From a bacterium (GTDB lineage: Bacteria > SAR324 > XYD2-FULL-50-16): 64,000 nt of DNA. Below the pieces are notes generated by a model. The model had not been told where the DNA came from. It did not search any database and worked only from the letters and a program-made list of their open reading frames with translations. Both the position numbers and the translations under genes were made by a program. Shown one piece after another: positions 19,100 through 34,677 of the stretch. The DNA lies in NCBI GenBank assembly GCA_032250835.1, contig JAVVEA010000005.1, positions 96,001 to 160,000 on the forward strand. Reading direction: 5' to 3'. Within the stretch, counting starts at the first letter, position 1. The number at the start of each line of letters is the position of its first letter.

Positions 19100-20662
19100 T
19101 TAAAAGGTTAGGTCCACTTTGAGGCCCCCTTTGGGACTCAGGCTTTGGCTTGATTCGCCTAGCTCTAGAACCCCCCATTGGTAGTCCTGATATTCACCGC
19201 CCACAAACCCGCCTAGCGACAGGTCCAAAGGCAGCGGCCAGCGCAGCCATAAGGCCAAGGTGGTGCTGGTCCCCTTAAACCGCATAGCAGGCTCATTGGC
19301 TGGGGCGTCGGCTTCGCGGGTAAAATCCATGCGGCGGTGGATCAGGCTGATTTCGGGCTCTAAAGGCAGCGTTTCAGAGAGGTCCAAATTGAAGCGGTAA
19401 TGGCGGATTTTGGTCAAATAGTTGGGAGCCGCCGCGATTTCGGCGCGCAGGCGTTCTTTCTCGGCGATTTGTTCGGGGCTATCCCCTTCGCTGATGATGA
19501 TGTTATCCACCTTCCCGTCCACCGACCAGCCAACGTGCAACTCTGCCTTTAAGTCTAAGTCACGGTAGCTCAGCGCCATTTTGTTGATCTCCACTCGGTG
19601 ACGGAAGAAGGCCTCGTCAATATTAACGCCGTACTGCATGGGCATCCACATATATTCTATGGCCCAGGCATCATAGTCAAAACCGCCCATAATATGGTGC
19701 AACTCATTGAGCCTAAAGTCCACCGCCCCCATGTCTTCAGGCTTCCATTTATAGCGTTCCTCGCCCAGTAACAGCCGGTCAAAGTCGTACATGATGCTAA
19801 AGTGCACATAGTCCGCCTTAAGGCGGTAGTAAAACTGGCTCTGGGGCTCTTCATGTAGGCTATAGGGCATCGGGTGGGTACCGGTGACCAAAACCCGCTG
19901 GAACCCAAAGGGCCCTTCGGACAACTGTGACACGAAGCTGGGGATGAAGCTATTGACCCGAGAGCGACTCGCCCCGTAGCGGGTGCCCGAAACAAACCAA
20001 AGGCCGAGACTGTTAAAGTTTTGGTAAACCTGAGGAACAGCGTAGAAAACCTTGTTTTCCCGGTATTCTTCCACCACTTTATAGGCCCCTTGCATCCGGT
20101 CTAATTCCCGGCGGATCAACAGTGGATCGCCCAAGAGTTGCTGCGGATTGATCCGGTTTTCTTTGGGTTGAGCGGCGCAATGGGCAAAGGGATAGGGATG
20201 GGCAAAGCTAGCCTGCTGGCCGCTAGTGGAGCCAAAACTAAGCGGTTTAAGTTCTTCTTGACGGACGATGTCCCAAATTGCGTCGCGCCGGATAATGGTT
20301 TCGCGGCCGTTGAGGCTCAAAAAGCTAATTTCTTGTTCGCTAAAATCTATCGGCCAGCCTTGCACCAATGGCTTTAAAACCCCCTGGTGCCTTGTGCGCA
20401 CCTCCAAGGGGGCTAAAGCCGGGCGGTCAATCTGAGGCAAAAACAACTCACCCATAGGGTAAGAGGCCATGTAGATCACGTCGAAGCGGTCGATCTCTTC
20501 AAACTTCCCCTTTAAATCTAAAAGGGTTAATTTCTCTTCCCCAACATCCAAAATCACCCCAACCGAACGGTTGCAGGCTCCTTTGTATAAGGCGGTGATG
20601 TTGAGCGCTTGGGCGGCCTGGGGGAGGCCTACCGCCCAAAGGAGCACCGCCCCCAGCGCCAT
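19100..20662 (-). CDS. Secreted/outer-membrane hypothetical protein, paralog 2
   Basis: Signal peptide (AAQA); shared motifs with 20667-22265; C-terminal amphipathic strands ending KVDLTF. Confidence 0.75.
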   Translation of the reverse strand: MALGAVLLWAVGLPQAAQALNITALYKGACNRSVGVILDVGEEKLTLLDLKGKFEEIDRFDVIYMASYPMGELFLPQIDRPALAPLEVRTRHQGVLKPLVQGWPIDFSEQEISFLSLNGRETIIRRDAIWDIVRQEELKPLSFGSTSGQQASFAHPYPFAHCAAQPKENRINPQQLLGDPLLIRRELDRMQGAYKVVEEYRENKVFYAVPQVYQNFNSLGLWFVSGTRYGASRSRVNSFIPSFVSQLSEGPFGFQRVLVTGTHPMPYSLHEEPQSQFYYRLKADYVHFSIMYDFDRLLLGEERYKWKPEDMGAVDFRLNELHHIMGGFDYDAWAIEYMWMPMQYGVNIDEAFFRHRVEINKMALSYRDLDLKAELHVGWSVDGKVDNIIISEGDSPEQIAEKERLRAEIAAAPNYLTKIRHYRFNLDLSETLPLEPEISLIHRRMDFTREADAPANEPAMRFKGTSTTLALWLRWPLPLDLSLGGFVGGEYQDYQWGVLELGESSQSLSPKGGLKVDLTF

Positions 20663-20666
20663 GGAT

Positions 20667-22265
20667 TTATAAAATAAATTCAATGGACCCCACCAAGGAA
20701 TACTGGTTTTCCTGGAACCGGCTCGAAGAACCAAAATCCAGTTGGTAGTCGCGCAAGAAGAAATTCAGCTGGCCAGTCAAGACCACATAGCTCCCAAAGC
20801 GTTGTCTGGCATACATCAACGTCTTGATCTGATTTCCTTTAAAACTGCGGTCCTGCTCTTTAAAGACCTCTCGGTAATCTACCTGCTGCAAAATCGCCGC
20901 ACCGCCAAAGGTGATTTCGGGGTCCCAGCGGTAGTCATAATTGCTTCGCAGGTAAAAGACATCAAAACTGAAGCGTTGCAACTGGGCACGCAACTGGGAT
21001 TCTGAATCTAAGGCCAAGCTCGCGCTGATCATCGCGTCGGAGTCGTTTAGGCGCAGCTGTCGCTCATCGGGTTCATCCGCCTCGGCGTGGCTTTTGGCCC
21101 AGATCAGCTTAAAGGAGGATTTAGGGTGCTGGAACATAAACCGGAAGATCGGCGTGGCCTCGGTAGCTAAGACTTCTCGAAAAAGCCCGCCTGCGTTGAG
21201 CCCATAAATGGGATAATATACCCCCGCCGCCAGCGAAAAAGGCCCGTAATCTATCCCCGAAAGGGCTAAATAGTTGAAGCTTTCATTAACCGCCGCTTCT
21301 TTAGCGACGACCTTTTTGTAATAGTCCAGCGCAAAGGCCCGATTGGCGACCATGAACCCACTACCCGCCGCCAGGGCCATCGGGTTGCCCACAAAGCTGG
21401 CGTTGAAGAAATGGGATTTTAGGTCCGTCTGCATCACAAAAACCGGCTCTACTTGGGGCAGCCATTCTACCTGCTTGGTGCCCAAAACCGTCAGGCCTTG
21501 GTGGCTGTAAGGACGACCGGCGGACCATTGGAAGTAAAAGGGGAAAAAGGAGGGGAGTTCCTCATTGCTGTTAGGAACCGTCAGCGGCAGGCCAAACTTG
21601 GTTTCCTCATCAAAAACAAAGGGCCTTGCGTAAAACTGGGTGCGTTCTTGAAAACGCCGCAAATTGGTGAAGCCCTCTTGATAGGCCCCAAAGAACTGGC
21701 TGATGCGGATTTGATCGCTGATCACCCGGGTCGGAAAGAGCGGCTCGCCGGGTCCCGGAGCCTCTTGGTCGTGGCACTGCGAAAGCCCCTGACCCAGACG
21801 GGGCGAAACGGGCTGGGCTTTGGTCGGCGCTAGCTCGGCGGTGAGATGGACGGGCGCTTTAATCCGCACGATTTGGTCGATGCCCACCAAGGAGGTCTTG
21901 CCGTTGGTGTCGTAATAAACCACCAACTCTTCTAAGAACCGGATGGGCCAGCCAGTGAAGGCCGGACCGCCCCGGTGCTTTAGGTGGATTTCGCGTAACT
22001 CCGATTGCAACCGACCGGTCAGGCGGACTTGGGAGATCGGGTTTTCCAGTGCATTGTAGACTAGGATATGGCGTACTTCTTCGCGCCGGATACTGTTGAG
22101 GCGGCCATCTAAGCCCAACAGGTCGATTTGCTGGGCGTCTGTGTAGATGATCAACCCAGCCGGGCCTTCGCACTGGGCGTCCAGCAATCGATAGAGTTCG
22201 ATGGCCTGCGTGGCGGGAACCTGGACCAACAAAAGCGCCAGGAAGGCTAAAATTATCCGGTTCAT
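20667..22265 (-). CDS. Secreted/outer-membrane hypothetical protein, paralog 1
   Basis: Signal peptide (ATQA); shared motifs with 19100-20662; C-terminus VGSIEFIL. Confidence 0.75.
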   Translation of the reverse strand: MNRIILAFLALLLVQVPATQAIELYRLLDAQCEGPAGLIIYTDAQQIDLLGLDGRLNSIRREEVRHILVYNALENPISQVRLTGRLQSELREIHLKHRGGPAFTGWPIRFLEELVVYYDTNGKTSLVGIDQIVRIKAPVHLTAELAPTKAQPVSPRLGQGLSQCHDQEAPGPGEPLFPTRVISDQIRISQFFGAYQEGFTNLRRFQERTQFYARPFVFDEETKFGLPLTVPNSNEELPSFFPFYFQWSAGRPYSHQGLTVLGTKQVEWLPQVEPVFVMQTDLKSHFFNASFVGNPMALAAGSGFMVANRAFALDYYKKVVAKEAAVNESFNYLALSGIDYGPFSLAAGVYYPIYGLNAGGLFREVLATEATPIFRFMFQHPKSSFKLIWAKSHAEADEPDERQLRLNDSDAMISASLALDSESQLRAQLQRFSFDVFYLRSNYDYRWDPEITFGGAAILQQVDYREVFKEQDRSFKGNQIKTLMYARQRFGSYVVLTGQLNFFLRDYQLDFGSSSRFQENQYSLVGSIEFIL

Positions 22266-23569: not shown

Positions 23570-24109
23570 TCAGTTCTCCCGTAGGTACCCAATCAAAGAC
23601 CCAAACCAACGCGTCAGGGTCAGGTAATATTTAACCAAAATCAAGGCCAGGAAATACCAAACCAGCAGACTGTGGGAAATATGCAGTAATTCTAACCCAG
23701 GCCATCCGCCCAGGTGCAGACGGGTTTTAAGGTGCAACAGTAAGCCCAATAGGGCAATCAAGCCGAGGGTAGAAAAAAACATCAGGTCCACCCAATGCCG
23801 GGGGCCTCGGCTTTTTATCTCGCGGATTTGGTCGCGGGCGGCGCTGCCTGCTTGTTTGAGCGCCACCTTCGGCGCGGTACGTCCCTGTATCCGGTCGTAA
23901 ACCAAAGCGACCAATACGGTGATCAACAAGATGCCAAAGGCCCGGTGGAACAATTGCATCTCGATGCGCCCAAAGGACTCTAAGATTTCTAAACGCCGCA
24001 GACCCAAGGCGGTCAGGTAACAAAGCAGGATCGCCGAGGGCAAGCCAAAACGGCGGAACTGGCGGATGCCAAATTCGTAGGCTGAAAAACGCAGCGATTG
24101 GAGATTCAT
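23570..24109 (-). CDS. Ni/Fe-hydrogenase cytochrome b-like membrane subunit with a reduced His set
   Basis: Four hydrophobic segments, third gene after small and large subunit homologs; LFHRAFG (TM2) and HISHSLL..LILVKYY (TM4). Confidence 0.7.
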   Translation of the reverse strand: MNLQSLRFSAYEFGIRQFRRFGLPSAILLCYLTALGLRRLEILESFGRIEMQLFHRAFGILLITVLVALVYDRIQGRTAPKVALKQAGSAARDQIREIKSRGPRHWVDLMFFSTLGLIALLGLLLHLKTRLHLGGWPGLELLHISHSLLVWYFLALILVKYYLTLTRWFGSLIGYLREN

Positions 24110-24115
24110 CGGCTC

Positions 24116-25576
24116 CTATTGGGTAGCGTCCAGGGCCATCGCATAATAGCTATGTAAAATGCGGTTGGCGGTCAGCGGTTTGATCGGGTTGTTCTCACTC
24201 AGTCGGTTCAACTCAGACTCGACCAAGCCGGTCTTGCCGAATTCGTCACGGCTGCTGAGCGTCCAGTTGGCCGGTGCCACGATCCGGTATCCGGTGATGG
24301 CTCCTTCGCCGATAAAGACCTGGTGCATCAAGCTACCCGAAGGCGCTTCGACCAGCCCCGTCCCGGTCCCACGCCCAGAGAAGGCAAGGGGCCGTTGTAG
24401 GTTGAGCTTTTGGCTAAAATCAAAACCCATCAGACTCTTAAAGAGGCTTAACATCAAAAAGCGCCCTTCAAAAGCTTCGGCCAGCAAGCGTGAGGCCGCG
24501 CTATTAGCGCGGTCGGAGCTAAGGCCTAGGTCTTCGATCCAAGCCGAGATGCTGTCGGAAATCTGCACGTTGCCGCCGCCGTAGTGGGTCACCAACATCC
24601 GCGCCAGGGGACCGGTCTGCATCACTTCGATTTCGTACCGGGCGGCTTTGATCCAGGTTTTCGCCTCTTTTTTGTTGAGGTCATAAATCAGATCGTTGGA
24701 CAGGCTCTTATTGTCCGCCGAACGGTAATAAGTGTCCACGAAAGATTCGGTCACCTTAGCGGCATTCAGGGGCTCCAATTTACCGTCCAGGTAAACACCG
24801 GAGGTATAATAAGAGGGGTCATCTTTGGCGTTTTCGATGTCCATGGAACCGAAGCTGATGAGCTGTTGGTTCTCGCCTAGTCCCTGGGCCAACTCCGGGG
24901 TTGCGCCGATCAAGGCCCGCAGATCGCCCGGCCAAGTTACCTCTACTGTTTGTTTGATGCCTTCGAGCAGCCGCAACAACCGCATCACCTGGTCTCGACT
25001 GACTTGCTGGTTAGTCACCCCGCCGGGGATCAAGTTCATCACGATCGGGAACTTTCCGCCTAGAAGCCCCAAACATTGTTGTAGCTTGCCTAAACAGGTC
25101 ACTACCTGGGGCAAATGGCTCAAAATCAGCCGCCCGCTTTCATGGCCTAAATCGCCCGGGGCTTCTTCACGCATCGCTAAAGCCGGAAAAAAGCTAGCCC
25201 GCAGCAGGCCTTGGGCCTTAAAGTGACGCTGGTTCAGATAGTCCGGCAGGACTTCAAAATAGAAATGAGAAATATGGGCGTGTAAAGTGGAGAGCTGCAG
25301 CATGATCTGGCGGATCTTCTGGCCCCCGTAGGTAGGCTTGATCTGGAGAAAGTTTTCCAGCGCTAAGGCAGCCGCCAAACCGTGAGCCACCCCGTTTTTG
25401 GCCGAAAGGGTCTGGGTCAGTTGGACTGCCTCCAAAGGAGACTTGCCAAAGAGCCGCCCTTCCATGTGCAGGGTGCGGCCCGACTGCAATAAAACCCGCC
25501 CTTCTTCGCCGTCGGTCTCCACCGAAACCTTCAACAGGCCTTCAATATTAGGAACCCGTTCGATCAATGATTTCAA
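24116..25576 (-). CDS. [NiFe]-hydrogenase large-subunit homolog lacking all metal-binding cysteines
   Basis: IEG..KV, HISHFY..LPDY, WIKAARY, GPLARM, EAPSG.L.H, APANW..S.RD..G..G..E; L1 and L2 CxxC motifs absent. Confidence 0.9.
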   Translation of the reverse strand: MKSLIERVPNIEGLLKVSVETDGEEGRVLLQSGRTLHMEGRLFGKSPLEAVQLTQTLSAKNGVAHGLAAALALENFLQIKPTYGGQKIRQIMLQLSTLHAHISHFYFEVLPDYLNQRHFKAQGLLRASFFPALAMREEAPGDLGHESGRLILSHLPQVVTCLGKLQQCLGLLGGKFPIVMNLIPGGVTNQQVSRDQVMRLLRLLEGIKQTVEVTWPGDLRALIGATPELAQGLGENQQLISFGSMDIENAKDDPSYYTSGVYLDGKLEPLNAAKVTESFVDTYYRSADNKSLSNDLIYDLNKKEAKTWIKAARYEIEVMQTGPLARMLVTHYGGGNVQISDSISAWIEDLGLSSDRANSAASRLLAEAFEGRFLMLSLFKSLMGFDFSQKLNLQRPLAFSGRGTGTGLVEAPSGSLMHQVFIGEGAITGYRIVAPANWTLSSRDEFGKTGLVESELNRLSENNPIKPLTANRILHSYYAMALDATQ

Positions 25577-26547
25577 GACTCATCCTCCCGGTCGTCGATC
25601 TGGTATTTGCGGGCCGAGCGTTTGGTTGCTCCGTGGATTCCTAAGCCCACCAAGGTTACCCCAAAGGCCCCGTAGGCCAAATCTTCGGCATGACGGACCC
25701 AGCCAGACTGGACCCCGGCAATCCGGTGGCTCAGTTGGCCGAAAAGACCCTGACCATGGTGCGAGGGGTAGTCGGGTTCCGAACAGCCGGTGCAGGGGCT
25801 GCCTACCGAAACACACCATTCATCGCTGCCGTTCCATTGGACGATGGGGCAGTCATTATAGGTGACCCGGCCTTTGCAGCCTAAGAGATAAAGACAACCT
25901 TCGCGTTCGCCGTGGTAGCGTACATAATCGCCCTTTTCAAAGTCGCCCCGGTATTCACAGCGGTCACAGACCAACTGTTCAAAAAACATGCGGGGCCGGC
26001 GGTGTTCGTCTAGTTCAGGTAGGCCATACATCAACAAATGGTTGAGTAAACCCAGCAGATGACGAGATTGGGCCGGTTGGCCAGGGATGCGGATCACCGG
26101 GGCGGGAGCACCCGAAAGAATCTGTCCGTTGAGGTCTAAATACCCGCCGGGCTTTTCGGCCAAATAGCTAGCTTCATTCCCCAAAAGGACCACGACCTTC
26201 GCGCGGGTGATCCAAGCATGTAAGATTTGGTTGACCCGGTCTAAGGCATCGTCGGGGAAAGCGCCTTCCAAAATGAGGATCGGTGGGCTTTGGTCTTCCT
26301 GGGGTTCTTCTCCTTCGGCCTCTAGACGGCGGAAGTAGCGCGCCAAGAAGGAAGGATATTCCTCTAGGCCCCACAGCCCGAGGCTGTGCGTCTCTGCGCT
26401 GTTGCCTTTCAGCCAGACCAAGGGTTCGGCTGCGCCCACTTCTTCCTGGGCCAACAAGTTGCTCAAGTTGGCGCTGAGGAAAGAAAGGCTCAAGGCCCCG
26501 GTGCCCAGCAGGCGGATAAAGTCTCTTCTGTTGTGTTGGTGGCTCAT
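25573..26547 (-). CDS. Tat-exported [NiFe]-hydrogenase small-subunit homolog lacking proximal-cluster ligands
   Basis: NRRDFIR Tat motif; CDRC, GCLYLLGCKG, NDCP, WCVSVGSPCTGCSEP; C-terminal TM with GIH. Confidence 0.92.
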   Translation of the reverse strand: MSHQHNRRDFIRLLGTGALSLSFLSANLSNLLAQEEVGAAEPLVWLKGNSAETHSLGLWGLEEYPSFLARYFRRLEAEGEEPQEDQSPPILILEGAFPDDALDRVNQILHAWITRAKVVVLLGNEASYLAEKPGGYLDLNGQILSGAPAPVIRIPGQPAQSRHLLGLLNHLLMYGLPELDEHRRPRMFFEQLVCDRCEYRGDFEKGDYVRYHGEREGCLYLLGCKGRVTYNDCPIVQWNGSDEWCVSVGSPCTGCSEPDYPSHHGQGLFGQLSHRIAGVQSGWVRHAEDLAYGAFGVTLVGLGIHGATKRSARKYQIDDREDES

Positions 26548-26552
26548 AGAAT

Positions 26553-27488
26553 TTATTGACCGGTTCTTTCCCTTTGATACCGGTACAAAGGCGCTCCGTA
26601 AAGGTCAAAAAACCGCGCCGAGAGCCGCTCGCGATTGGCCTGAAGGTACAAGAAACCCTGGCCGGGGTGTAGGAAAAGCGAGCCGGAACGCCCCTGGGGC
26701 GACTGGGACCCCTTGTAGGGATAACCGCCACCACCGGAGATCAAAAAATCGGTGCCCTCAGGATTGAGCTGAATATGCTCTAAATGATGTTCATGGCCCG
26801 AGAGCAACAAATCCACTTGCTCCCCCAGCCAGACATCCCAAAGCCAACGCAGCATCGCCGGTGCATCGCCATGATCCCCTGAACCATAAAGATTGTGGTG
26901 GGCAAAAACCAAACGCCAAGACTGAGCCGGAGCCAAGTCCAGTTGGTCCTTGAGCCAACCCCAACCGAAGGGGCGGCAGTTGGAGTTGAGTCCATACAAC
27001 TCCACCGGTCCCGCGCTGAGGTGGTATTTAAAGTCCGGCATGCGCCACTTGAGGCTATGTAAGCTGTATTCACGCTGGGCCAGGACGGAGCCTTTGGCGT
27101 CGTGGTTGCCTAAAACCACCAGAAAAGGCAGGTCCAAGTCGGCGTAGACCGACTCAAAATGACTGACCCATTGGGGGTCGGCTAGGCTGGTGACTCCTTT
27201 GGGGTAAAAGTTATCGCCCAAATAGAGGACCAAGTCGCAGCCCAGTTCAGCGCAAACCTTGGCGATTGATTGGGCCACTTGGGCTTGCAACCATTCGCCG
27301 GTACCCGCGTCGCCCAAGACAATCAACCGCAGCTCCGCTTTGCCCTTAAAGGTGTCTAGGGACATCAAAGCCCCCTGATCGGCGCAGCCCTTAGCCTGCC
27401 ATTGGGACCTTAGCTGCAGCAACGCCCATAAACCTAACAACAGCAGCACAGCGGCCAAAGCCCAGCGGAAGCGGCCTTTGGGTAACAT
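26553..27488 (-). CDS. Exported purple-acid-phosphatase-like metallophosphoesterase
   Basis: N-terminal TM/signal; LGDAG, LGDNFY, LGNHD, AHH, SGHEH. Confidence 0.9.
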   Translation of the reverse strand: MLPKGRFRWALAAVLLLLGLWALLQLRSQWQAKGCADQGALMSLDTFKGKAELRLIVLGDAGTGEWLQAQVAQSIAKVCAELGCDLVLYLGDNFYPKGVTSLADPQWVSHFESVYADLDLPFLVVLGNHDAKGSVLAQREYSLHSLKWRMPDFKYHLSAGPVELYGLNSNCRPFGWGWLKDQLDLAPAQSWRLVFAHHNLYGSGDHGDAPAMLRWLWDVWLGEQVDLLLSGHEHHLEHIQLNPEGTDFLISGGGGYPYKGSQSPQGRSGSLFLHPGQGFLYLQANRERLSARFFDLYGAPLYRYQRERTGQ

Positions 27489-28823: not shown

Positions 28824-29900
28824 CTAAGGATTGCTGGGGTCGAACTCAGGAGGCGCTTTCAACTCATTGGGGACCGGGCCTGTTGGGGCGGCCTGCTCGG
28901 CGGGAGCGGCCGGGGGCGCGGTTGCTGGCCCTTGGGCCTTTTCGGCGTTCCGCTCGGCCACAAAATGAGGGTCGAACAGTGAGCGGCGCTCATCTAGGCA
29001 ATCACCTAAGACCCGCTCGATTTCTTCAAACTGCTGGTTGAGGTCCATCTGAACGCGGGCGAAGTCAGTCTCGACCACCGGACCGCTGGCTGAAACGCTC
29101 TCGCTTTTGCGGAAGGTCAAATATTGCCCTTCTTCCAGATAGGCTTCTAATTCCGGCTTGTGTTTGGCCAAAAAGTCGTATTCCACGGGATGCACGGTGA
29201 TGCGCACCTTGCCCAGGCCTTCAAAGTGCTTGAGCGCTGTTTTGATCAGGTTCAAAACAAATTCAGGCCGGGTCTTTAACTCTTCATGGACCACCTTCTT
29301 AGCCATCAACAAAGTCTGTTGGACTATTTCGGTTTCGTGCTGGTGGGCCAGGGTGATGCGGAGATCTTTCAACTCGGCCAACAAGTCCGTCACCTGCACC
29401 GCCAATTCAGCGCTATCCTTACGGGCTAATTCCAGCCCCGCTTCATAGCCTTTGGCGTGGCCCACTTCATAGGCGGCCCGTTCGATTTCCTCTACCGAGG
29501 CCTCGGCCTTTTCCACCATCGCCAGGGCGTCTTTTTCGGCTTCTTCGCGCCGGATCTGGGCATGAGCTAAGGTTTCTTCAGCCTCGGACAAGGCTAAATC
29601 GGCATTGCGCATGATCAGCTTCGCCTGTCGGTCGGCCTCGCTGCGGATGCGCTTGGAGTATTCCTCGACGTTGGTCAGTAAGCTGCCCTCTTCAACAAAG
29701 GCATTGGAGGTAAACTTGCTGGCGTCGCGGGTATCTAGGCGGATCGTGGCCTTGGCGCTTTTGGTGATCAGTGATTCGGGCTCGAAGGCCCGGACCTCTG
29801 GGTCCTCCTCGGGGCCTCCGAAACTCTGCATCACCTCTACCTGCGGGGCGTCGTCCTCGCTGATGTCCTCGAATTGTGGGGGAAGGAACTGGTTTTCCAT
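28824..29900 (-). CDS. fliH: Flagellar assembly protein FliH, extended
   Basis: Lies between fliF and fliI; AYEVGHAKGYEAG (GxxxG), ITVHPVEY, GPVVETDF. Confidence 0.85.
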   Translation of the reverse strand: MENQFLPPQFEDISEDDAPQVEVMQSFGGPEEDPEVRAFEPESLITKSAKATIRLDTRDASKFTSNAFVEEGSLLTNVEEYSKRIRSEADRQAKLIMRNADLALSEAEETLAHAQIRREEAEKDALAMVEKAEASVEEIERAAYEVGHAKGYEAGLELARKDSAELAVQVTDLLAELKDLRITLAHQHETEIVQQTLLMAKKVVHEELKTRPEFVLNLIKTALKHFEGLGKVRITVHPVEYDFLAKHKPELEAYLEEGQYLTFRKSESVSASGPVVETDFARVQMDLNQQFEEIERVLGDCLDERRSLFDPHFVAERNAEKAQGPATAPPAAPAEQAAPTGPVPNELKAPPEFDPSNP

Positions 29901-29921
29901 AGTTGCTTAGAGCCGGTGCTT

Positions 29922-31550
29922 TTAGGGTCCCTTCTTTTCCTTGAGCCAAGTCCGTACCAAAGACGCCGTCTTGAGCGGGTCCTGCTTGGCGATTTCGATG
30001 ATCTTGTCGCGTGGCGGAATCCCCGTTTCCTTTTCGGTCGGGATTTCCAATTCTTCGCCTTCTAGTTCGCCGATGGTAGTGGGCAGACCCATGAGCAGGT
30101 CCAAATCCTCGGGCTTGGCCGAGAGCTTCATCACCATCGGGCGGATCACCATGAAGACCAGGACAATCACAATCAAGCCGACCAAGACGTAGCGGACCAA
30201 GTCGATGATGAACTTGCGGGTCGCTTCGTTTTTCTGCTGCTTGAGGCGTTCCTGCTCGACCAAAGGCTTGGTGAAGCGGATGTTTTGCACCGTAATGGTG
30301 TCGCCCCGTTCGTTGTTAAAGCCCACGGTCTGTTTAGCGATCTGTTCGATCATCTGCAGGTCGGCGGGGCTCCATGACTTATATACAGGGCTACCGACCA
30401 CGTCGCCGTTTTCGTCGCGGACATACTCATACTTACCGTCCAACAAAACCGCCACGCTCATGCGCTTGATCTCGCCGGGGGCCTTTTTCTTGACTACATG
30501 CCGGGTGGAGTTGACGTAGTTGGTGCGCTTGACCCGCTTGTCTAAGTCGCTGACGTTGGCGATCTCGCTGGCACCGGCGCGTACTTCGGGGCTGTTGCTG
30601 GTTACGCCGGGCACGCCTACGGGAATGCTGCGGCTACCGGTGGCCTTTTCGTTGGTCGCTTCTTCACTAACCACCGCGCTTAAGTCGGGGTCCACTAAGT
30701 CTTCGGTGATTTCAGAGATATTAAAGTCCATCTCCACCGAGGCGCGCACCTCTACACGGTCCTTGCCGGTCACCTTTTCCAGCTGGCTTAAAAGCTTTTG
30801 CTCTAAGCGCAGTTCCACCAGCTGCTGGTGGCCAAAATTCTTATTGCGCATCTCTGAGCCGTCCTCGTCACCTACTTTAGAAAGCAGGTTACCGCTGGTA
30901 TCCGAAACGCGTACATCCTCCATAGACAGGTCTGGAACAGCACCGGCCACGAGGTTAACAATGGTGTTGACGCCCTTGCTGTTCAGGCGGTTGTTCGGGG
31001 CCATCTCGACCACTACCGAAGCGGTGGTGCGGCGGTCCTCGTCAATGAACAGGCTTTGTTCCGGGATGGCGACGGAGACCTTGGCGTTCTCGATGATGTC
31101 GATCAGGCTGATCAACCGGGCCAATTCCCCTTCTAAGGCGCGCTTGTACTGGACTTTCTGTTGGAATTCGGTGGCACCGAAGTTGGCTTCGTCGAAGATC
31201 TCAAAGCCCACCAAGCCACCCATCTGGAGGCCCGAAGAAGCAATCTGCAGCCGCACCTTGTCCACATCATCCACTGGCACCAAAATACCCCCACCACCGG
31301 GCTGCAAGACATACTGCACGTTCAGTTCGTCCAGTTTCTGGACGATCTTGGCGGTGTCGCCTTGCTTGAGGCCCGAAACCAAGGGTGCGTAGGTGATTTG
31401 GGAAGAAAAGAAGACGAAGGCGATCAGGCCTAATACAATACCCCCAAGGCTAGAGAAGAGGAATATCTTCTTACCTGTGGTCAGGCTTGCAAAAAAATTT
31501 TGAAACTGGGACTGAAAGTCGTCGACCAGTCCTACAGTCTGTTCGGCCAT
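29922..31550 (-). CDS. fliF: Flagellar M-ring protein FliF
   Basis: VGFEIFD..FGATEF.Q.V.Y.RALEGEL.R.I, SLF, ASVV, LVAGAVP.L, GVPG..SN, two TM helices, C-terminal DP...A..VR.WL. Confidence 0.96.
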   Translation of the reverse strand: MAEQTVGLVDDFQSQFQNFFASLTTGKKIFLFSSLGGIVLGLIAFVFFSSQITYAPLVSGLKQGDTAKIVQKLDELNVQYVLQPGGGGILVPVDDVDKVRLQIASSGLQMGGLVGFEIFDEANFGATEFQQKVQYKRALEGELARLISLIDIIENAKVSVAIPEQSLFIDEDRRTTASVVVEMAPNNRLNSKGVNTIVNLVAGAVPDLSMEDVRVSDTSGNLLSKVGDEDGSEMRNKNFGHQQLVELRLEQKLLSQLEKVTGKDRVEVRASVEMDFNISEITEDLVDPDLSAVVSEEATNEKATGSRSIPVGVPGVTSNSPEVRAGASEIANVSDLDKRVKRTNYVNSTRHVVKKKAPGEIKRMSVAVLLDGKYEYVRDENGDVVGSPVYKSWSPADLQMIEQIAKQTVGFNNERGDTITVQNIRFTKPLVEQERLKQQKNEATRKFIIDLVRYVLVGLIVIVLVFMVIRPMVMKLSAKPEDLDLLMGLPTTIGELEGEELEIPTEKETGIPPRDKIIEIAKQDPLKTASLVRTWLKEKKGP

Positions 31551-33471: not shown

Positions 33472-34677
33472 TCACTCCTGCTCGCCTAACCAGCGTTCGG
33501 CATCGATGGCCGCACGGCAGCCCATCCCGGCGGCGGTGACCGCTTGGCGGTAGTGGGGGTCGGCAACGTCACCGGCGGCGAAGACGCCTTCGATGTTGGT
33601 CTTGCTGGTAATGCCCTGGGTGACCAAGTAACCCTGTTCGTCCATATCCAACTGCCCCTTGAAAGGCGCGGTGTTGGGGCTGTGGCCGATGGCGACAAAC
33701 AGGCCGGTGGTGCCCAACTCGCGGGTTTCACCGGTTTTAAGGTTTTTCACCCGCAGATCGGTCATCAATTTCCCGTCGCCCATCACCTCGTCAATGGCCG
33801 AATCAAGCACTAGTTCGATCTTGGGGTTCGCCTGAACCCGCTTCTGCATGGCCACCGAAGCGCGGAACTCCTGGCGACGGTGGATCAAAAAGACCTTCTC
33901 GCAGATGTTGGCCAAATAGCTGGCTTCTTCTAAAGCCGTATCCCCGCCGCCGACAACGGCCACCTTTTGTCCCCGGTAAAAGAACCCGTCGCAGGTAGCA
34001 CAAGCCGAGACGCCGTGGTTGCGGTATTTATCTTCGCTGGGCAGACCTAAATACTTAGCGCTCGCGCCGGTGGCGACGATTAAGGCGTCACAAGAATAGG
34101 TCTGGTCGTCGGTTTTGAGGTGGAAGGGGCGCTTGGACAGATCCACTTCATGAACCTCAGAAAAGACCAATTTGGTCTCGAAACGAACGGTCTGGGCTTC
34201 CATGTTCATCATCAACTGGTTTCCGTCGATCCCTTCAGGGAAGCCAGGGAAGTTTTCTACCTCGGTGGTGGTGGTCAGCTGGCCGCCCTTTTGGGGTCCG
34301 GCGATGATCAGCGGATTCAAACTGGCGCGGGCGGCGTAAATAGCGGCCGTGTAACCCGCCGGGCCAGAACCCAAAACAATGACGCGGTGGTGTTCCGTTT
34401 CCATTTCCTCTTCCTCCCTTTCAAGTAGGGGATCGAGCTTACCGGCCCGATCCAAGTCAAAGAGATCGTCGCAGCCGCCGACATGAAAATCGCCGATAAA
34501 AATCTGAGGAACGGTACGCTTGCCCCCGCTCTTTTCAATCATTACGTCGCGCTGCTCGGGATGCTCGTCGATCCAAATTTCTTCGAATTCAACGCCCTTG
34601 CGAGCCAAAAGAGACTTGGCGCGGTCGCAAAAGGGGCAATAATCCTTGCAGTAGATGACGACGTTTGGTTTGCTCAT
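33472..34677 (-). CDS. trxB: Glutaredoxin-3 / thioredoxin reductase fusion protein
   Basis: Residues 1-85: CPFC, TVPQIFI, GGCDDL. Residues 92-401: GSGPAG, GGQL, CATC, GGGDTA, AAGDV. Confidence 0.92.
   Translation of the reverse strand: MSKPNVVIYCKDYCPFCDRAKSLLARKGVEFEEIWIDEHPEQRDVMIEKSGGKRTVPQIFIGDFHVGGCDDLFDLDRAGKLDPLLEREEEEMETEHHRVIVLGSGPAGYTAAIYAARASLNPLIIAGPQKGGQLTTTTEVENFPGFPEGIDGNQLMMNMEAQTVRFETKLVFSEVHEVDLSKRPFHLKTDDQTYSCDALIVATGASAKYLGLPSEDKYRNHGVSACATCDGFFYRGQKVAVVGGGDTALEEASYLANICEKVFLIHRRQEFRASVAMQKRVQANPKIELVLDSAIDEVMGDGKLMTDLRVKNLKTGETRELGTTGLFVAIGHSPNTAPFKGQLDMDEQGYLVTQGITSKTNIEGVFAAGDVADPHYRQAVTAAGMGCRAAIDAERWLGEQE

Follow-up and report, generated by a model that had tools for sequence, protein, structure and literature searches.

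A stretch of 64,000 nucleotides (nt) from a bacterium of the phylum SAR324 (Candidatus Lambdaproteobacteria), hereafter the window (positions 96,001 to 160,000 of contig JAVVEA010000005.1, assembly GCA_032250835.1), contains on its reverse strand three adjacent genes for a small subunit, a large subunit and a membrane protein that descend from group-1 [NiFe]-hydrogenases. Judging from the residues found at the metal-binding positions, this operon no longer codes for a hydrogenase. We favour, with moderate confidence, the interpretation that its products form a three-protein, membrane-bound redox complex, exported by the twin-arginine translocation (Tat) pathway, with a relay of two all-Cys [4Fe-4S] clusters and heme b. 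The site that reacts with H2 has been lost and yet the proteins are strictly conserved, so the complex probably moves electrons for another purpose.

The small-subunit-like protein is encoded by an intact open reading frame (ORF) at 25573..26547 (-), of 324 amino acids (aa). In the Pfam scan it matched only PF14720, the C-terminal small-subunit domain (E 2.4e-23, residues 189-263), and not the N-terminal domain PF01058; against the NCBIfam model TIGR00391 (hydA) it scored 116.8 bits, under the cut-off of 179.5. With phmmer it matched 43 distinct small-subunit sequences of the PDB, the best being 1yqw_A (E 8.5e-26). A search of 5.8 billion proteins with the same sequence gave 87 hits at E <= 1e-5, and the first 68 (E <= 1.6e-69) constitute the family described here. 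PF14720 alone was found in 65 of these 68 homologues, and the other 19 hits (E >= 1e-29) all contain PF01058 together with PF14720. A full-text literature search retrieved no description of this family.

Ligand positions were established by phmmer alignments to solved small subunits and by aligning family members in MAFFT with 18 genuine small subunits of other phyla. By these alignments, the protein of the window has none of the four Cys ligands of the proximal cluster. The first two (CxxC) are replaced by A51-E-T-H54 (26386..26397, -), the third by E125 (GxC to GNE; 26173..26175, -) and the fourth by Q157 (PGCP to PGQP; 26077..26079, -), and no conserved Cys occurs at these columns across the 68 homologues. 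Position 51 is S in 53 homologues and position 54 is H in 44, Q in 12, D in seven and N in three; position 125 is E in 59 and D in five, with D/E in the deep-branching clade too, and position 157 is variable, being Cys in no homologue. The cluster-binding region of the two other sites, C194-C255 (25783..25968, -), was defined by alignment with the PDB entries and the genuine relatives. The distal site contains C194, where the HxxC motif has His, along with C197, C218 and C224, and the medial site contains C233, C245, C252 and C255, with C245 where [3Fe-4S] enzymes have Pro. None of the eight Cys varies among the 68 homologues, against a mean column identity of 50%, and 40 homologues contain exactly eight Cys in total.

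These results bear out most of a previous sequence-only reading of the window, which had located the gene at the same coordinates and quoted the strings SAETH, GNEA, PGQP, CDRC, CLYLLGC and NDC..WC..PCTGC, all of them present in the ORF. It had proposed that the proximal ligands are replaced, that the distal site is ligated by Cys only and that the medial site has four Cys, one of them at the [3Fe-4S] Pro position, as we also find throughout the family. It had further made its interpretation depend on conservation of the distal Cys among orthologues, and the first distal position is Cys in 68/68 homologues (all 12 family rows of the MAFFT alignment) as compared with His in 18/18 genuine relatives. 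We also searched 1.84 billion cluster representatives with a profile, obtaining 1061 hits at E <= 0.001, and read the distal column in the 150 best; among these, a distal Cys was confined to family-type sequences plus one ambiguous representative, P0148, with a His three residues upstream of the distal Cys (HIGCPRC) and an uncertain alignment. The N-terminal ligand columns of the genuine sequences in this hmmalign alignment were unreliable and were left unused. From these comparisons, the distal His-to-Cys change appears to be specific to the family. Conversely, the Cys of the medial 'WC' motif occurs in 15 of the 18 closest genuine relatives (the exceptions having P, V or L), so the four-Cys medial site was probably inherited from a NiFeSe-like ancestor and is not a novelty of the family.

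The small subunit begins with a Tat-type signal peptide, as read from its sequence (residues 1-33; 26449..26547, -), containing NRRDFIR at residues 6-12 and with a putative cleavage site after LLA. An RR.[FL] motif precedes the mature part in 52/68 homologues; the remaining 16 begin within or after the signal region, most probably as a result of late start calls. At the other end, an AlphaFold2 (AF2) model places a helix at residues 287-311 (25615..25689, -) that is a probable membrane anchor, as in HyaA and HoxK. PDB alignments extend to residues 309-315 only for membrane-bound small subunits, and 26 of the 68 homologues pass a strict hydropathy filter for such an anchor. The model has a mean predicted local distance difference test (pLDDT) score of 69, with blocks of 80-95 in the N-terminal alpha/beta domain. 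Foldseek aligned it with solved small subunits over 249-320 columns, the top matches being the NiFeSe enzymes 4kl8_S (E 3e-12) and 1cc1_S (E 6e-12), and on this basis the flavodoxin-like domain in which the proximal cluster used to sit is predicted to be retained, though invisible to Pfam.

The partner gene at 24116..25576 (-) overlaps the stop of the small-subunit gene by 4 nt and encodes a large-subunit-like protein of 486 aa. It matches PF00374 well over the cut-off (E 2.1e-49; 169.3 bits, cut-off 25.8) and NF033181 far below it (193.9 bits, cut-off 600), its best NCBIfam large-subunit models being of the NiFeSe type. When aligned to the Desulfovibrio vulgaris Miyazaki F enzyme and others, RxCGxCxxxH reads TLSAKNGVAH, with S58-A-K-N61 in place of CxxC (25394..25405, -), and DPCxxCxxH has become YAMALDATQ, immediately before the stop, with M480-A-L-D483 in place of CxxC (24128..24139, -) and three residues left before the end of the protein. 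All four NiFe Cys are gone in 18/18 genome-derived family rows and kept in 12/12 genuine rows, and S58 is invariant in the former where the latter all have Cys. The same holds among 30 protein-database clusters of the family: the N-terminal Cys pair is missing in 27/27 and the C-terminal pair in 29/29 of those covering the respective motif, the PRG motif retains its active-site Arg in 0/29, and none has a C-terminal extension, so that no endopeptidase step is expected. In total, family large subunits contain zero to five Cys, with one member having zero. Residues that define the fold and are common to genuine enzymes are still invariant, for example E12, G13, H65, R89, H101, R313, H418 and W438. 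The large subunit thus appears, from its aligned motifs, to be dead as a NiFe enzyme. In this respect the sequence-only reading needs qualifying, for it took the small subunit to belong to a hydrogenase; its partner has no NiFe ligand at all, and the function retained would be other than H2 catalysis.

The third gene (23570..24109, -) begins 6 nt after the large-subunit gene and encodes a membrane protein of 179 aa which, from alignments and an AF2 model, appears to be a diverged subunit of the HyaC/cytochrome b561 type with four helices and one His pair (H55 and H146). The copy in the window has no Pfam match of its own, and PF01292 (Ni/Fe-hydrogenase b-type cytochrome) is matched by 12/17 orthologues, with a best E of 1.7e-9. 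Invariant in the 17 orthologues are H55, G59, F111, G122, H146, W151, W168, Y175 and L176. A hidden Markov model (HMM) of these sequences matched, in seven Actinomycetota loci, the ORF that immediately follows a genuine large-subunit gene (E 4e-6 to 5e-4). An hhalign comparison of the family with these ORFs plus the cytochrome b of the genome's own membrane-bound hydrogenase (MBH) gave a probability of 81% (E 1.2e-5, 154 columns), and paired H55 and H146 with H64 and H181, which are invariant in the genuine hydrogenase cytochromes b. The position of the genuine H195 is occupied by Lys or Arg throughout the family, and that of H22 by Arg in the window and by His only in some members. Of the two His pairs required for two hemes, only one is therefore conserved, H55 and H146 being the only invariant His.

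The AF2 model of the third protein (pLDDT 81.6) shows long helices at residues 3-38, 48-78, 103-131 and 139-178. Its best structural matches were Escherichia coli HyaC (4gd3_A; Z 13.1, 151 residues), E. coli CybB (5oc0; Z 13.0) and 6g94_A (Z 12.6), and the next, unrelated row had a Z of 10.0; for helical bundles, a Z of 13.1 lies near the noise level. A sequence search of the PDB with the profile of the third gene gave only two chance-level matches. Applying the positive-inside rule to this model, both retained His would be located where helices 2 and 4 end on the periplasmic side, and the retained heme b would be the one beside the distal cluster. Judged by the heme geometry of FdnI and HyaC, a complex without the second heme may no longer pass electrons across the membrane. 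A complex prediction for the third protein and the C-terminal part of the small subunit scored 0.23 against a mark of 0.32, constituting neither support nor counter-evidence.

The gene order small subunit-large subunit-membrane protein was found in 16 of 17 family loci, the remaining one (L017) being cut by the end of the contig, and in the deep-branching clade a small membrane-protein ORF also follows directly after the large subunit. Around the three genes, four promoters were predicted as compared with 6.8 expected from shuffled sequence, none exceeding expectation, and no clear terminator bounds them. Among sequencing runs, no RNA run was listed as containing this DNA, and a single DNA run contained a small share (0.13) of its sequence words. 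Of 88 genomes from the phylum, 37 encode the small subunit. By taxonomic family (numbered f1 to f7), carriers were 16/18 in f1 plus the genome of the window, 1/1 in f5, 19/19 in f6, 0/45 in f7 and 0/4 in f2-f4 combined. In a quick IQ-TREE phylogeny of 79 large subunits, the 21 dead ones formed one clade with an SH-aLRT support of 99 and a stem length of 1.48; the program warned of long branches in this tree. This clade splits into an f1-type group (17 rows, support 100) and the deep-branching, f6-type group (four rows, support 96). Reading frames are intact in all family loci. For the close pair L023/L024, Nei-Gojobori ratios of nonsynonymous to synonymous substitution rates (dN/dS) were 0.053 for the small subunit, 0.051 for the large subunit and 0.088 for the membrane protein, with dS of 1.2-1.4; between the window and L009, where dS approaches saturation, they were 0.13-0.18. 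Purifying selection on all three genes is strong. The sequence-only reading had argued for continued function as opposed to decay, and the eight invariant Cys together with the ratio of 0.053 for the small subunit, obtained from one close pair, agree with it.

The operon also persists independently of Hyp maturation. HypD (PF01924) was found in 35/88 genomes of the phylum and in 18 of the 37 carriers, leaving 19 without a match, a count to be read with the incompleteness of metagenome-assembled genomes in mind. Carriers without HypD include G082 (98% complete), G012 (97%), G085 (96%) and G002 (92%, six contigs), as well as the single-contig genomes G005 and G006; in G005, G006 and G012, the dead large subunit is the sole match to PF00374. 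G082 and G085 each add one ORF of some 400 aa whose match to PF00374 is confined to the C-terminal part of the model (G082:C33:11796-12020 and G085:C27:27350-28405) and these may be NuoD-like. On other contigs, the genome of the window encodes a Tat-signal small subunit with the CTCC proximal motif beside a 572-aa large subunit, a further pair that has no signal and whose large subunit stops at the motif His, another large subunit of 428 aa, and HypD. Because of these genuine enzymes, the dead operon is a paralogue in this genome, and in other genomes it is the only hydrogenase-like locus. The region G000:C43:34734-56411 (L001, L002 and L004) includes the genuine Tat-exported hydrogenase, with its CTCC small subunit and a cytochrome b gene; the signal-less pair lies about 17 kb from it, with HypD between them, and looks sensor-type. 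As to previous accounts of the phylum, an extract from one SAR324 genomics paper mentions only group 1d hydrogenases (PMC9031357), and an extract from another gives hydrogenases as absent (PMC4782131).

In the mechanism that we propose, the small subunit would hold two all-Cys [4Fe-4S] clusters and the third protein one heme b, together forming a short relay on the periplasmic face that would run from heme b to the distal cluster and on to the medial cluster. The relay would exchange electrons at one end with the membrane (the quinone pool) and at the other with a periplasmic partner; the dead large subunit would act as a scaffold and as a partner for Tat co-export, with no catalytic role. Several points weigh against this proposal. 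Inside the protein, the medial cluster would lead nowhere unless a partner docks nearby or electrons leave solely through the distal cluster and the heme. The part of the domain that should bind the clusters is poorly predicted in the cofactor-free AF2 model (pLDDT 40-55), and assignment of the third protein to cytochromes b depends on weak similarity, with no Pfam match of the copy in the window and a best Foldseek E of 0.034, which is not significant. Furthermore, the former proximal loops are well conserved in the main clade (GQSSGIH, LLGNEA and KLPGxP) and the acidic residue at position 125 is common to both clades, so the emptied proximal pocket could have a role beyond structure. Finally, published mutant and density functional theory work, as excerpted from PMC5297734, bears on the effect of the distal ligand on potential and on His-mediated exit, and the same excerpt, citing Dementin et al., describes the Desulfovibrio fructosovorans distal His-to-Cys mutant H184C as assembling its cluster but being impaired in intermolecular electron transfer. 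By analogy, this behaviour would argue against fast exit through an all-Cys distal cluster; since the substitution slows intermolecular transfer, the natural Cys may tune or restrict the exit route, in line with what the sequence-only reading had proposed.

A bolder interpretation, to which we give perhaps a one-in-several chance, is that the operon encodes a periplasmic respiratory module of a new class, whose evolution would be the mirror image of that of complex I. In complex I, the proximal cluster was kept and the NiFe pocket was turned into a quinone site. Here, the catalytic half would have been discarded and the medial and distal [4Fe-4S] clusters kept along with a periplasmic-side heme b, linking the membrane to a periplasmic partner or substrate, and the dead large subunit, which is conserved, might contribute a new pocket for binding or catalysis.

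It is rather unlikely that the emptied NiFe and proximal pocket holds a metal without thiolate ligands, or an organic cofactor, and that the complex acts enzymatically on some substrate other than H2. Such a site would account for the invariant polar residues that the family has at former ligand positions: S58 at the first Cys of the large subunit and D/E at the fourth, E/D at small-subunit position 125 in both clades, and H, Q, D or N at position 54 in 66/68 homologues. It would also fit a large subunit conserved as strongly as the small one. However, the deep-branching clade does not conserve H54 and S51, having T/S or L/S there, position 157 is variable, and we saw no conserved set of His or Cys able to form a redox-active site. 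Moreover, in the crystal geometry of hydrogenases the NiFe site is too distant from the medial cluster for direct electron transfer, and the former site would face the same distance.

We regard as similarly improbable that the complex is a redox or gas sensor, in which clusters and heme would monitor the quinone pool, O2 or NO and would not sustain a metabolic flux. There is precedent in the group 2b regulatory hydrogenases, which are hydrogenase-derived sensors. The probable sensor-type enzyme of the same genome (L002) ends at the motif His and the dead large subunit likewise has no extension, and a relay this short, without an evident catalytic terminus, would be consistent with sensing. Nevertheless, neither clade has a kinase, receiver, DNA-binding or other signalling gene as a conserved neighbour, a LexA-like S24 peptidase gene adjoining the operon only in three of the five deep-clade loci.

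The genomic neighbourhood raises the question of whether the operon is a functional accessory of the flagellar apparatus, which we consider very unlikely. The synteny is striking: the three genes belong to a same-strand run in the window comprising flgB, flgC, fliE, fliF, fliH, fliI, a calcineurin-like phosphoesterase gene, the operon, coaE and vanY, and follow the flagellar and phosphoesterase genes with gaps of 5-6 nt. FliF, FliH and FliI adjoin the operon in 12 of 19 loci, the other common neighbours being VanY (14), CoaE (11) and the phosphoesterase (8). The deep clade has flhB nearby in 2/5 loci, an SRP54-type/ParA-type gene pair in 3/5, and flhA in G012. Phyletic patterns do not fit such a dependence, however, and largely refute it. 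Family f7 has FliF in 41/45 genomes and the operon in 0/45, and G005 and G006, each a single contig, retain the operon with no match to FHIPEP (FlhA) and none to FliF over the Pfam cut-off; additionally, 450-550 kb separate the operon from fliF and flhA in G002. Because of the patterns in f7, G005 and G006, we treat the flagellar neighbourhood as inherited synteny and not as a sign of function.

Several other features of this neighbourhood were observed. The phosphoesterase, encoded at 26553-27488 (-) between fliI and the small-subunit gene, has an N-terminal hydrophobic segment. fliG is absent from its usual place between fliF and fliH (window 28824-31550), and the best FliG_C match lies on another contig (G000:C43:136009-136329). 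Just upstream of the flagellar rod genes, window 33472-34677 (-) encodes a 401-aa protein with a glutaredoxin domain fused to a pyridine-nucleotide-disulphide oxidoreductase. On the other side, window 19100-22265 (-) contains two tandem genes for signal-peptide proteins of 532 and 544 aa with no Pfam match, which are related to each other as distant paralogues (366 residues aligned at 23% identity, E 6e-16); neither belongs to a cluster common to at least four of the 19 loci. The S24 peptidase genes of the deep-clade loci are located at L099:6599-7258, L101:6826-7476 and L026:5963-6610.

That the operon still encodes a hydrogenase, with unconventional ligands, is hardly credible, even though PF00374 and PF14720 are matched over their cut-offs and some members appear in public records as 'Ni,Fe-hydrogenase I' subunits: the four NiFe Cys and the Arg of PRG are absent family-wide, no proximal cluster is left to accept electrons, 19 of the 37 carrier genomes have no HypD match, and the NCBIfam cut-offs are missed by wide margins. 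Lastly, a decaying pseudogene pair left by a lost hydrogenase would also have lost its eight metal ligands, but this is refuted by the conservation data, namely frames intact in all loci, eight Cys invariant in 68/68, a dN/dS of about 0.05 and a single old clade spanning two families of the phylum.

The favoured interpretation, a Tat-exported redox complex that is not a hydrogenase, has consequences for how these genomes are annotated. The 'Ni,Fe-hydrogenase I' names given in records or by automatic tools may inflate H2 metabolism in reconstructions of these lineages. More generally, the family would represent a natural group-1 case in which the active site and the proximal cluster were lost and the rest of the electron chain was kept under strong selection, and its natural all-Cys distal cluster would offer a handle on why genuine hydrogenases keep the His ligand. 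This His is also absent from the D. fructosovorans mutant H184C and from cyanobacterial HupS, which has Gln in its place. H184C is, however, a laboratory mutant and HupS belongs to an active enzyme, whereas in this family the Cys is the fixed natural state.

Among characterised systems, E. coli Hyd-1 (HyaABC; 4gd3 and 6g94) and the MBH of Cupriavidus necator (HoxKGZ; 3rgw) share with the family the gene order small subunit-large subunit-cytochrome b, a Tat signal on the small subunit only and a C-terminal helix on that same subunit, and HyaC is the best match of the third-gene model (Z 13.1). Unlike them, the family has neither NiFe ligands nor a proximal cluster, its distal His is replaced by Cys, its cytochrome b retains one His pair of two and its large subunit has no C-terminal extension. 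The periplasmic [NiFeSe] and [NiFe] enzymes of groups 1a/1b (Desulfomicrobium baculatum, 1cc1/4kl8; Desulfovibrio, 1yqw and 1h2r) provide the best structural matches and the best NCBIfam large-subunit models, and also have a medial site with four Cys, the pattern of a [4Fe-4S] and not a [3Fe-4S] cluster, and a large subunit of about 485 aa; they differ in being active, with three clusters and a His-ligated distal cluster. NuoB/NuoD of complex I and the Ehr-type complexes are pairs of small and large subunits derived from group 4 that lost the NiFe Cys and are still functional. They face the cytoplasm, keep only the proximal cluster (N2) and have no PF14720 medial/distal domain, and their membrane partners resemble antiporters. 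The family is their converse, periplasmic, with the proximal cluster lost and the medial and distal sites kept, and it is further set apart from Ehr and complex-I-type modules by its Tat signal, its PF14720 domain and the absence of proximal ligands and of Nuo/Mrp-like neighbours; as such, it complements these known group-4 descendants.

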